A stretch of DNA of 11,276 bases from a virus (taxonomy: Duplodnaviria; Heunggongvirae; Uroviricota; Caudoviricetes), in the IMG/VR virus record IMGVR_UViG_2548876964_000017, positions 1 through 11,276 of that record; one strand, 5' to 3'. How positions within the stretch are numbered: the stretch's first letter is position 1; each line of letters starts with the position of its first letter. Position numbers: made by a program. Below, in pieces: positions 1 through 3,000 of the stretch.

Positions 1-3000
1 CGGTATTGACGCCGTTACCGTCTGTCATGAAGGGCACAAAATAAACGCCCTCACTCTCCCTGTTTTTATACCCGCCGTACACGGTGTCGTACTGGGTAGC
101 GTATGTATTTTTCCAGTAATACGTCGTGTCACCACAAATCCACGGCACATCTGCAGCACTGCCACCATGGCACTGCGCGTTAAACACGGAGAGGTCAGCA
201 CGAAACTGTGCCAGCATGGCTGTAAACAGCGCAGGTTGCTGTGCGTGGGTGGCGGCGCTCATGTCAAACTCTCCCTGCATCCAGCACACCGCCAGCAACA
301 CATTTTTCGGGTTCTTCTGTAATGCAGCTTTAGTGCGCGCAATCAGGTCCTGATATAACGGTTTACCCACACCCCAGCGCGCCGAATCCTGGCTGGCCCC
401 CGTGTCCGCACTGAATGTCCCCTCAGCGCCCTGGGTGAATGCAGAACCACCACGACAGCATGGTACCAGCAGGATCCCCGCGTTATTCGGGATATACGGA
501 AGCAGTTTTTTGGCAATATATAAGCCCTGGCCGACACAGCCGTACTGCCCTTTGCTCAGGTCTGCCTTCGGATGATTCAGCGTACTCATATCCTGCACAT
601 CATGCAGGCAGTGGTCAGCCGGAATGATGTCGTTATACGTACAACTCTCTCCACCCGGAGTTACCGTGCTGCGGCGCGCCAGCTGTTTAATGCGCGGATC
701 CGGAGCATCGTAAGAATCCGGTAACGGAAGCCCTTCACCGTAGGCCATGCCGTTGGACTGTCCGGCAAGCACAACCACGTAGAACCAGTCCGGCTCAGAT
801 GAAGGGCCGACCTGTGGATCTCCTTCAATAGCCACCGCCTGCATCAGTGTGTACGGCGTAATGGCAACCGGTCCGCCGTATGGCTGCCAGCCCTCTTTCA
901 GTTTGTGTGTCAGCTTTTCCGCAAGGTCTGACGGCGACGCCGCCCTGACAACATCATAGTGTTTAAATGCCATGAATCCTCCCGGCCGGGATAATATTGT
1001 GAGTAAAATGAGGAGCGGGCTGAAGTCCGGAAGTTACAGGACAATGGCAGAAGAGAGACAACAGCCCGCAATACGAAAAAGGCCGCGCTATTGCGCAGAG
1101 TGATTACTGTCGGATATTATTCGCCAGCTGAAATATTACTTCACGTTTTGTTGTTTATTCCTTGCCGCCCGCGTCTCCCTGCGCGGGCTTTTTTTGTCCA
1201 TAAGAAAGCCCCTCCGGAGAGGGGCTGGAGAGTGGCGCTATGTGCCATTGCATGGTGCCGGGTGCCTCCCGGTGAATTCAGTACCAGCACCTGAATCCGC
1301 GATTATCCCATATACCTACTCGCTGATTGCCCCTCCGCACAGGGGGATTCACCATGCCAGTTTCTTTTAACAAACTCCCCGCAAACCAGACAACAGTCAA
1401 CCGCCTGAATTGTGAGACATTTAAAAAAAAGGCCCGCAAAAGCGAGCCAGGGAAAATAAGTGTGGCGCGTTGTACTGGATTCGAACCAGTGACCGATTGC
1501 TTAGAAGGCAATTGCTCTGTCCGGCTGAGCTAACAACGCAGGATACAGATAATGGACCGCCTTCGGGGACCCGAACTCCGCGCAACCAGCTTCGAAAGCT
1601 GGCGCTCTTTCCTGATGAGCTAATGGCGGTATGTGATGGTGGCCCTTGCTGGATTTGAACCAGCGACCTGGCGATTATGAGTCGCTCGCTCTCACCACTG
1701 AGCTAAAGGGCCGGGTCAAAAAAATAATAATCAGATGAAAATCAATAATCAAGCCCTTGCCTGGATACATATCTGTCTGGCGGGAAGCCATAATAGCGGT
1801 GAAATACAGAAATAAAGTAGGACCAGCTTGAATAACCGCATTTTTCTGCTACAGCCTGTCCATATCCATGCCGGGAACATAACATATTCACAGCAACACG
1901 CATCCGCTCTTCCAGCAACAAGCGACTGAACATGTGCCCTTCATTTTTCAGTTTTATCTTTAACAAACTCTCACTCATATGCAGGCGTAACGCAATCGCA
2001 CCAAGCGTCCAGCTTGCTGATATATCTGTCTGAATTATCGCCCTGACTTTGGCACTTATACTGGATAAACATCCACTTAAAAATAATAATATCCGTTCAT
2101 CTGATTCAAACAGCGACAGGCATGCCATCATAAGAAACATATCCGTGGTATCTCCGGAAAATCTCTGGCTGGTAATTAAAGCCTCAGCCAACGCAGGGTT
2201 GTTGGGTTCCAGTGACAGATAAAGCGGAACGTCAGTCAGATGAGTTCTTGTCAGCTTATGCTGAATTTCCAGATATTGACTTACTATGGAATGGTTTATA
2301 TCGAAAATTTTAACTTTGCCATAATGCATAAGGAAAAGCGCCCTGATGCATTTGGTGGCCAGAACGACTGAGCCGGGCTTAAGTGACAACGTATCCTTTT
2401 CAAGAAAAATATTAATTGGGGAGCAAACCATGATAACTGAACAGACAACAACCATTATAATTTTACTTTCATTAGCAATTGGTTAGTTCAATTATAGCCC
2501 CAAAAGGTAAATTATCATCAACACATAAGCAAAGGACTGACAGGTGCCGCTAACACCCACCAGCCGCCCATTTACCACAAATAAAAAAGCCTTCAGGACT
2601 GAAGGCGTCTGTAACAACCGCACTGATAGTCTGCCAGACCCGCCATAACAAGCTGGGTCAGTATTAACTGGCAGCGTTCGCGTGAAAGGTAAGTATTCTG
2701 CGCAATCTCCCCGACTGTCGCCGGTTCGGTGACGCTTAATTCATCAAACACAACTCTGGCGGTTTCTGTCATATCCTGCTGTTTCAGCATGTCTTTTTAC
2801 CCTTTCCGGTTAACGTGACACACCAATAACTCTTGCCGAAAAAGCCAGCAAGCTGAAAGACCTGTATTAATAACTACCAGCACATTTAACGCACTGCGCT
2901 ACTTTGCGGGCACAAAAAACCCGCTCAGAGGCGGGGTCAAGCTATGCGGCGAAATAACCACTCTTAACAGCATACCTGATTTTTTACGTACGTAAATGCT

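Follow-up and report, generated by a model that had tools for sequence, protein, structure and literature searches.

The window analysed here, an 11,276-nucleotide stretch of a Caudoviricetes virus (IMG/VR record IMGVR_UViG_2548876964_000017), carries three tRNA genes in a row, and the middle one raises the question of whether it still encodes a working tRNA. The initial annotation had read this gene as a tRNA with anticodon UCG and had offered two interpretations, a decaying pseudo-tRNA or a phage tRNA with altered decoding or an unusual processing pathway. We consider it probable that the gene is a decaying allele of argN, a dispensable accessory tRNA under relaxed selection. We found no evidence for altered decoding or for an unusual processing pathway.

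The tRNA trio and its prophage setting

ARAGORN called a 77-nt tRNA-Arg(tcg) gene on the minus strand at 1553-1629, and the Rfam tRNA model RF00005 matched 1629-1556 with 42.9 bits (E=1.6e-6), above its gathering score of 29. Both results bear out the position and the anticodon first proposed. The first gene of the trio, ileZ (anticodon CAU; 1637-1712, minus strand), is fully canonical by ARAGORN and Rfam (72.5 bits); ARAGORN labels it Met and RefSeq labels the same gene tRNA-Ile. The third gene, argO [tRNA-Arg(UCU); 1463-1539, minus strand], is likewise canonical by both programs (70.1 bits). The middle gene thus occupies the place of argN, between the tRNA(CAU) gene ileZ and the tRNA-Arg(UCU) gene argO, with short spacers and a shared terminator.

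A consensus scan yielded a sigma-70 promoter-like site (TTGATT-17-TATTAT; 1724-1752, minus strand), located 12 nt upstream of ileZ, as a candidate promoter of the trio. At the corresponding location, the annotation of VT2-Sakai gives a 'putative tRNA promoter', and the -10 region TTATTAT is common to the alignment. Directly downstream of argO, a terminator-like GC hairpin (GGCTCGCTTTTGCGGGCC; 1431-1448, minus strand) is followed by eight T. The hairpin is identical in VT2-Sakai and Nil3, and the VT2-Sakai annotation gives it as a possible rho-independent terminator. As the window keeps both the promoter-like site and the terminator, its argN is probably still co-transcribed with ileZ and argO.

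On the minus strand, a DnaC-like replication gene, DUF1627, hok/sok, DUF968, RusA and the Q antiterminator lie upstream, followed by a CPBP-family protease, a small ORF, an AraC-type regulator and ileZ-argN-argO; the terminator hairpin, the STnc100 sRNA and a SASA-family esterase come after the trio. A query with the 400 bases around the trio hits 289 phage records, the majority of them from Stx2-converting phages, in which the genes are annotated ileZ, argN and argO. With a 1.5-kb query around the trio, matches are found in 3400 of 5426 complete E. coli genomes, at a median of 2 and a maximum of 17 places per genome. STEC strains such as E2865 carry a lambda-like prophage to which the window is 99.9% identical over this 1.5-kb stretch; the prophage is near full length and integrated adjoining yccA. 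Since Q is annotated as frameshifted in E2865, we considered a dead prophage. This reading was dropped for the window because its 126-aa Q ORF spans the whole Pfam Q model, and because the E2865 prophage is otherwise full length.

The genes ileZ, argN and argO became known with the 933W genome sequence; the cluster was reportedly described by Plunkett et al. in 1999 as lying upstream of stx2 in this Stx2 phage. In VT2-Sakai, the trio is located between Q/pR'/tR' and stx2A, whereas that of the window is located in a non-Stx lambda-like prophage, upstream of the STnc100 sRNA and the SASA-family esterase and not of stx. In the window, two to three additional genes (CPBP protease, AraC-type regulator) separate Q from the trio.

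Fold of the middle tRNA and comparison with canonical argN

Read 5' to 3', the middle tRNA consists of CCGCCAU UA GCUC AUCAGGAAA GAGC G CCAGC UUUCGAA GCUGG UUGCG, followed by CGGAG UUCGGGU CCCCG AAGGCGG U CCA. The irregularities noted initially (G at 58, a T-stem mismatch, an A-A acceptor mismatch and C at position 1) were all correctly read from the sequence. By cmscan and our own pair check, pairing is non-standard in two of the four stems, at A6×A67 in the acceptor stem (1624 and 1562) and at A52×C62 in the T stem (1577 and 1567). The T-loop reads U54 U55 C56 G57 G58 G59 U60, so that G58 (1571) stands in place of A58 and the loop departs from the standard U54 U55 C56 R57 A58 with its reverse-Hoogsteen pair U54-A58. 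This conserved pair is described as a key contact in the elbow of tRNAs (PMC7912444). The gene keeps U8, A14, G18G19, U33, a purine at 37 (A37), G53-C61 and the 3' CCA and, as read from the sequence, also U55 and C56. The anticodon U34 C35 G36 is found at 1595-1593, and the discriminator U73 is followed by an encoded CCA (1555-1553).

The identity set of E. coli ArgRS comprises A20, C35 and G36 or U36, with a minor role of A/G73. A20, C35 and G36 are all present in the window copy (the AUCAGGAAA D-loop puts A at 20), and position 73 is U instead of a purine. We regard U73 as a family trait and not as a lesion, because it is present in the 933W/Sakai allele and in all argN alleles.

The argN genes of VT2-Sakai and EDL933-Stx (933W) are fully canonical and have A58, G52-C62, G51-U63 and A6-U67. 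Like the window copy, this gene (L0101; annotation AP000422) is 77 nt long and has ileZ and argO as neighbours, and 69 of 77 positions are identical. Both have the CCGCCAU/AUGGCGG acceptor backbone, U73, an encoded CCA, a 9-nt D-loop with A20 and the anticodon UCG. The eight differences are at 17, 20a, 32, 44, 52, 58, 63 and 67. Three of them affect conserved or paired positions, so that the window has G58, A52×C62 and A6×A67, along with G51-C63. These three features are peculiar to the lineage of the window allele, except that the A52×C62 mismatch is present, alone of the three, in the Stx phage Nil3. In contrast to argN with 8/77 differences from VT2-Sakai, ileZ has 0/76 and argO has 1/77 (position 37, A in the window and G in Sakai), i.e. 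1/153 for the two neighbours at the same locus (Fisher p=8e-4). With the CCGCCAU acceptor, C1-G72, U73 and the anticodon UCG, the window gene carries the signature of argN, and on this sequence comparison we assign it to the argN lineage with three derived changes at conserved or paired positions.

C at position 1 (1629), which had been suspected as a defect, proved to be half of a normal Watson-Crick pair, C1-G72, that is kept in all argN alleles and in a Serratia relative. Since the 933W/VT2-Sakai gene carries the identical backbone, C1-G72, U73 and the anticodon UCG are family traits. The C1 start and the UCG anticodon were accordingly rejected as anomalies; both are common to all alleles, including that of 933W.

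The anticodon UCG had also been considered an unexpected identity for a rare-codon supplement. This view did not hold, as UCG is the argN anticodon in 933W/Sakai and in every canonical allele. E. coli itself is not known to encode a tRNA-Arg(UCG). In the K-12 set, CGA is read solely by the inosine-containing tRNA-Arg(ICG) via wobble, and CGG is read by a minor tRNA. Among 22 genes of the matching prophage, the codon frequencies per 1000 were 7.1 (CGA), 13.3 (CGG), 8.2 (AGA), 7.3 (AGG) and 10.3 (AUA), and CGA and CGG together made up 29% of the Arg codons. The CGA and CGG values are about twice those of the host (~3.5 and ~5.5 per 1000 in the E. coli K-12 codon table). UCG is therefore an ordinary rare-codon supplement: it is the usual anticodon of argN, it is absent from the host set, and its codons account for this share of prophage Arg codons. 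As a set, the trio covers AUA, CGA/CGG and AGA/AGG. Phage accessory tRNAs, for example the T4 tRNA set, supplement rare host codons, and argN resembles them in that the codons matching its anticodon are rare in the host and more frequent in phage genes. Unlike them, the window copy lacks three of the conserved structural features and probably no longer does that job.

Covariance-model scoring separated the alleles of argN. Canonical alleles scored 55-56 bits, about 13 bits more than the 42.9 bits of the window copy, and window-type alleles as a class scored 42.9-43.4 bits. An allele with G58 as its only defect scored 54.0 bits (a loss of ~2 bits), and alleles with a rearranged anticodon arm gave no Rfam tRNA match at E<=1. 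The window copy thus has a lower score than canonical alleles and, with eight differences from 933W argN, it is not identical to a known functional phage tRNA.

The predicted nearest-neighbour energy of the cloverleaf rises from -28.3 kcal/mol for the canonical gene to -20.0 kcal/mol for the window copy. In the predicted minimum-free-energy fold of the latter, a competing hairpin dominates (UUCGG/CCGAA; U54-G58 with C63-A67), with the five pairs U54-A67, U55-A66, C56-G65, G57-C64 and G58-C63. G58, C63 and A67 together lengthen this hairpin. The 933W gene already forms four of the five pairs, because TTCGA is nearly self-complementary. As most of its pairs pre-exist in the canonical allele and it has no other support, we rejected a selected new hairpin structure as the main explanation. 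Taken together, ARAGORN, Rfam, the 933W/VT2-Sakai comparison and the cloverleaf energy indicate an argN-type tRNA-Arg(UCG) gene in a degenerate allele.

Variation of the argN slot and spread of the window allele

We compared 140 prophage loci from two IMG/VR scans, one anchored on ileZ and argO and the other on the first 17 nt of argN. A contig scan with CCGCCATTAGCTYATC gave mostly chance 16-mer matches in unrelated phyla, and ~10 of its 120 loci were relevant. Allele distances were obtained by edit-distance fitting alignment to VT2-Sakai, and a gene was scored as intact when all stems were paired and the conserved nucleotides, the anticodon and CCA were kept. Nucleotide diversity was calculated from 54 distinct full-length haplotypes.

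The 140 loci contained 17 alleles of ileZ, 35 of argO and 58 of argN, with median distances from VT2-Sakai of 0, 2 and 7 edits, respectively. Intact genes were found at 130/136 loci for ileZ (96%), at 102/126 for argO (81%) and at 51/140 for argN (36%), where these counts treat non-independent loci as independent and the sequence anchors add selection; the same-locus contrast between the three genes is the robust part. Nucleotide diversity was 0.006 in ileZ, 0.019 in argO, 0.081 in argN and 0.216 in the argN-argO spacer. By these values, evolution in the argN slot is 4-13 times faster than in ileZ and argO.

The lesions of argN at the 140 loci occur in at least 20 different combinations; among them are rearranged anticodon arms, truncations and fusions of argN with argO. 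Besides 51 canonical loci, we distinguished 26 of the window type, 3 with G58 only, 20 with other point defects, 33 with a rearranged anticodon arm and 7 with other fusions, truncations or indels. In canonical alleles, changes are confined to 17, 20a, 26, 27, 37, 44, 47, 57, 60 and 63, where they fall in loops or at variable positions or leave pairing intact. Window-type alleles have extra changes at G10, G50 and C74 (in the CCA end), and no pair-restoring change was seen among them in the 54-haplotype set. The slot is almost never deleted outright, even when it is heavily damaged. The argN slot thus evolves much faster than its neighbours and has been damaged in many independent ways. A related tRNA-like relic is fixed in the E. 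coli core genome.

The window allele was found in none of 50,697 phage records, 261 of which bear argN in the form of other alleles. The closest phage records share 90.9% identity with it (Nil3, phage 86), and Stx2a phages share 89.6%. Together with its flanks, it is present at >=99% identity in at least 559 complete E. coli genomes, among them O157:H7, O111, O103 and O145, where RefSeq annotates tRNA-Arg; the window copy thus already bears this label in hundreds of RefSeq genomes. Sakai-type alleles (>=95% identity) occur in ~1041 genomes. The wide identical spread of the window allele could reflect retention or mere clonal sampling.

Probable decay of an accessory tRNA and the alternative readings

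We hypothesize that canonical argN, as in 933W and VT2-Sakai, acts as an accessory tRNA reading CGA and CGG, which are rare in the host and over-represented in phage genes. The window lineage has acquired A58>G, U67>A and G52>A while the two neighbouring tRNAs stayed essentially unchanged. The first change abolishes the universal U54-A58 pair of the T-loop, the second disrupts the acceptor pair 6-67 and the third the T-stem pair 52-62. Poor folding, maturation or stability is predicted for the product, which would do little or no decoding. Relaxed selection on a dispensable and often redundant accessory tRNA in polylysogenic E. coli would best account for such decay; redundancy plausibly aids it, given that genomes were hit by the 1.5-kb trio query at 2 places in the median and at up to 17. 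Of the overall interpretation in the initial annotation, the pseudo-tRNA option therefore stands, in agreement with a canonical orthologue in 933W/VT2-Sakai, three derived changes and a fast-evolving argN slot, and its UCG anomaly and its defect at C1 fall away.

The window copy has lost features that its intact orthologue retains and has a higher substitution rate than its functional neighbours, as is typical of tRNA pseudogenes. TRNA pseudogenes and relics of enterobacterial chromosomes and prophages likewise show a recognisable cloverleaf, damage at conserved positions and faster substitution than functional neighbours. Unlike wrecked relics, however, argN of the window passes as a tRNA in every program used and in RefSeq, and its anticodon arm is intact. 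Because it is still called a tRNA and, unlike the rearranged alleles, has an intact anticodon arm, we place it at an early or intermediate stage of decay.

Alternatively, the gene may still encode a working tRNA-Arg(UCG) that tolerates G58 and the mismatches, is charged by ArgRS and supplements CGA/CGG decoding for prophage genes. We consider this unlikely, although several observations are compatible with it: the anticodon loop, A20, C35, G36, G18G19, U55, C56 and CCA are kept, G58 alone costs only ~2 bits, CGA and CGG constitute 29% of the prophage Arg codons, the carrier prophage is otherwise near full length and the identical allele is widespread (at least 559 genomes). The score above the Rfam gathering threshold and the tRNA-Arg label in RefSeq are likewise counterpoints to decay, as are the intact ArgRS identity elements and the presence of the A52×C62 mismatch in the Stx phage Nil3. 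However, an in vivo selection by Zagryadskaya et al. in 2003 is said to have recovered the combinations U54-A58, G54-A58 and G54-G58 but not U54-G58, which is the combination in the window copy. Moreover, the lost U54-A58 pair is conserved and important (PMC7912444), two stems are weakened with a predicted cloverleaf loss of 8 kcal/mol, and the substitution rate is far above that of the flanking tRNAs. Further lesions have arisen within the window lineage, none of them compensatory, and the allele is found in no isolated phage record.

A tRNA-like RNA with a non-decoding job has a still smaller chance, and we consider it very improbable. Such an RNA could serve as a processing spacer for ileZ and argO, as a decoy for tRNA-targeting nucleases or through the UUCGG/CCGAA hairpin. 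This reading would account for the extended 5-bp hairpin that dominates the predicted minimum-free-energy fold and for a slot that is hardly ever deleted outright despite heavy damage, and the related relic fixed in the E. coli core genome is consistent with it. However, no covariation or conservation is specific to the alternative fold, and four of the five hairpin pairs are already made by the 933W allele. The other lesion classes are structurally unrelated to each other, which fits decay and not a shared new function.

Taken as one proposition, it appears quite improbable that argN of the window is expressed, matured and charged despite U54×G58 and two stem mismatches, or is kept as a non-decoding tRNA-like RNA. 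If it were expressed and charged, CGA/CGG decoding in ~10% of sequenced E. coli would involve a natural elongator tRNA of bacteria that lacks the canonical T-loop pair. A misaligned hand fold or a chance match, with no tRNA-like gene at 1553-1629, has next to no probability, because the two independent programs ARAGORN and Rfam give the identical fold and coordinates and because thousands of E. coli genomes, as well as 289 phage records, share the conserved order ileZ-argN-argO.

In full-text literature searches, we found no functional or expression, processing or aminoacylation data on ileZ, argN and argO or on Stx-phage tRNAs. The mentions of the trio that were found are purely descriptive, and one report states that codon adaptation is no different in phages that carry these tRNAs.

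The probable decay of argN is a small point at the level of annotation and of little consequence for biology at large. Two things may not have been recorded so far, the structural degeneration of a widespread allele and the place of argN as the least constrained gene of the trio by a wide margin. Because annotation pipelines call an allele without A58 and two stem pairs normal, the number of functional prophage tRNAs in STEC genomes is probably overestimated. Constraint within the trio is very unequal, strongest on ileZ, then argO, then argN, which suggests that, of the three, the CGA/CGG-reading tRNA can most easily be dispensed with.

A stx2A-like gene was found in the same locus with 10 of 51 canonical argN alleles, 0 of 26 window-type alleles (p=0.014) and 0 of 33 rearranged alleles (p=3e-4), an association that is suggestive only, as many contigs are short. 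The p-values are only indicative, since the loci are not phylogenetically independent and were picked by means of sequence anchors. Among the sampled loci, stx phages are thus associated with the canonical allele and not with degenerate ones, which makes the argN allele a possible marker of prophage type.

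Possible alternative fold and rearranged alleles of argN

The degenerate argN of the window (tRNA-Arg(UCG), 1553-1629, minus strand), the middle gene of the prophage tRNA trio ileZ-argN-argO, has a possible alternative hairpin of five base pairs, UUCGG-GUCC-CCGAA, in which tRNA positions 54-58 pair with positions 63-67 (window 1562-1575, minus strand). The three derived bases G58, C63 and A67 all take part in its pairing. In the predicted minimum-energy fold the hairpin replaces the T arm, at -29.0 kcal/mol versus -20.0 kcal/mol for the cloverleaf. Four of the five hairpin pairs are possible in the canonical argN allele.

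The argN slot between ileZ and argO was rearranged in a number of prophages. In 33 of 140 prophage loci (e.g. L004, L010, L032, L132 and L138) it was occupied by a version of 80-81 nt, which has AGACGACACGATAACAGGGTTGTTGGTGC in place of the anticodon arm and a T-loop of GCGGGU, and which was not called by ARAGORN or Rfam. Fusions of argN and argO were present in four of the 140 loci; here, the 3' half of argO was joined at the anticodon loop to the 5' half of argN (CCGCCATTAGCTCATCGGGATAGAACGCCAGCCTTCTAAGCAATCGGTCACTGGTTCGAACCCAGTACA). The two Arg tRNAs are similar, and recombination between them appears to have caused a deletion here. Another allele carried the anticodon UCU on the argN backbone.

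This backbone was also found outside Escherichia, in Serratia and Phytobacter. In Serratia proteamaculans (locus L165, 1622-1772) the copy is intact, has the anticodon UCU and A as its discriminator, and precedes tRNA-Gln(UUG). In Phytobacter ursingii (locus L169, near 1673) an argN-like sequence comes after an ileZ-like tRNA and is degenerate.

The argN-like sequence upstream of yahM

A tRNA-like sequence of 81 nt was located in the yahL-yahM intergenic region of the E. coli G4/9 chromosome (locus L268, 3001-3081), and also in loci L191, L224 and L230. Its acceptor, D and T arms are those of argN (C1-G72, U73, CCA and A58); the anticodon arm is abnormal, with a 7-bp stem and a 6-nt loop. The sequence has no RNA annotation and was not matched by the Rfam tRNA model at E≤0.1; the annotated yahM gene begins inside it, with an overlap of 11 nt. 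It occurs as a single copy in 5169 of 5426 complete E. coli genomes, with an identity of at least 99% in 4822 complete genomes. Synteny with the yah genes holds for Escherichia and Shigella; the loci of Salmonella, Citrobacter and Phytobacter lack it. It appears to be an ancient relic of an argN-type tRNA that has become fixed in the chromosome. Because CAGGAAGAGCAGACGACA...TTGTTG is common to this relic and the 80-81-nt version in the prophages, our data suggest that the two share a common descent or that recombination has taken place between them.

Surroundings of the tRNA trio

In 933W and VT2-Sakai, pR', tR' and the trio follow almost directly after the Q antiterminator gene, whereas in the window three extra genes (1742-3901, minus strand) separate Q (4047-4427, minus strand) from the trio. 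These encode, all on the minus strand, a CPBP/Rce1-like membrane protease (3077-3901), a 65-aa ORF (2593-2790) and an AraC-type HTH regulator (1742-2455). The 126-aa Q ORF of the window aligns with the Pfam Q model over its whole length (positions 2-118 of 118, 175 bits). In the 99.9% identical prophage of the STEC strain E2865, Q is frameshifted according to RefSeq (compared at locus L001, 7184-7554). This prophage also has an alpha/beta hydrolase where the left part of the window has a DUF551 gene (7147-7704).

A full-length match to the STnc100 sRNA (1196-1386, minus strand; 138 bits) immediately follows the tRNA terminator and precedes the SASA-family esterase gene. Related loci have one or two copies, adjoining matches to the AgvB or AsxR anti-sRNAs. 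In size and in its terminal hairpin (1226-1207), the match resembles the short leader transcript that runs from pR' to tR' in lambdoid late operons. If it is this leader, the trio of the window would lie upstream of the late promoter, unlike that of 933W.

The first tRNA of the trio, ileZ with anticodon CAU (1637-1712, minus strand), is named tRNA-Met by ARAGORN and some GenBank records and tRNA-Ile by RefSeq and the 933W annotation. A published genome comparison took this naming difference between strains as a biological difference (PMC5552260).

Within the prophage's nin region, a full-length match to the sok antitoxin RNA (6851-7025, minus strand; 113.5 bits) adjoins a small hok-type ORF (6701-6913, minus strand). 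Together they are a hok/sok type I toxin-antitoxin module, which is annotated as hokD in the matching RefSeq record.
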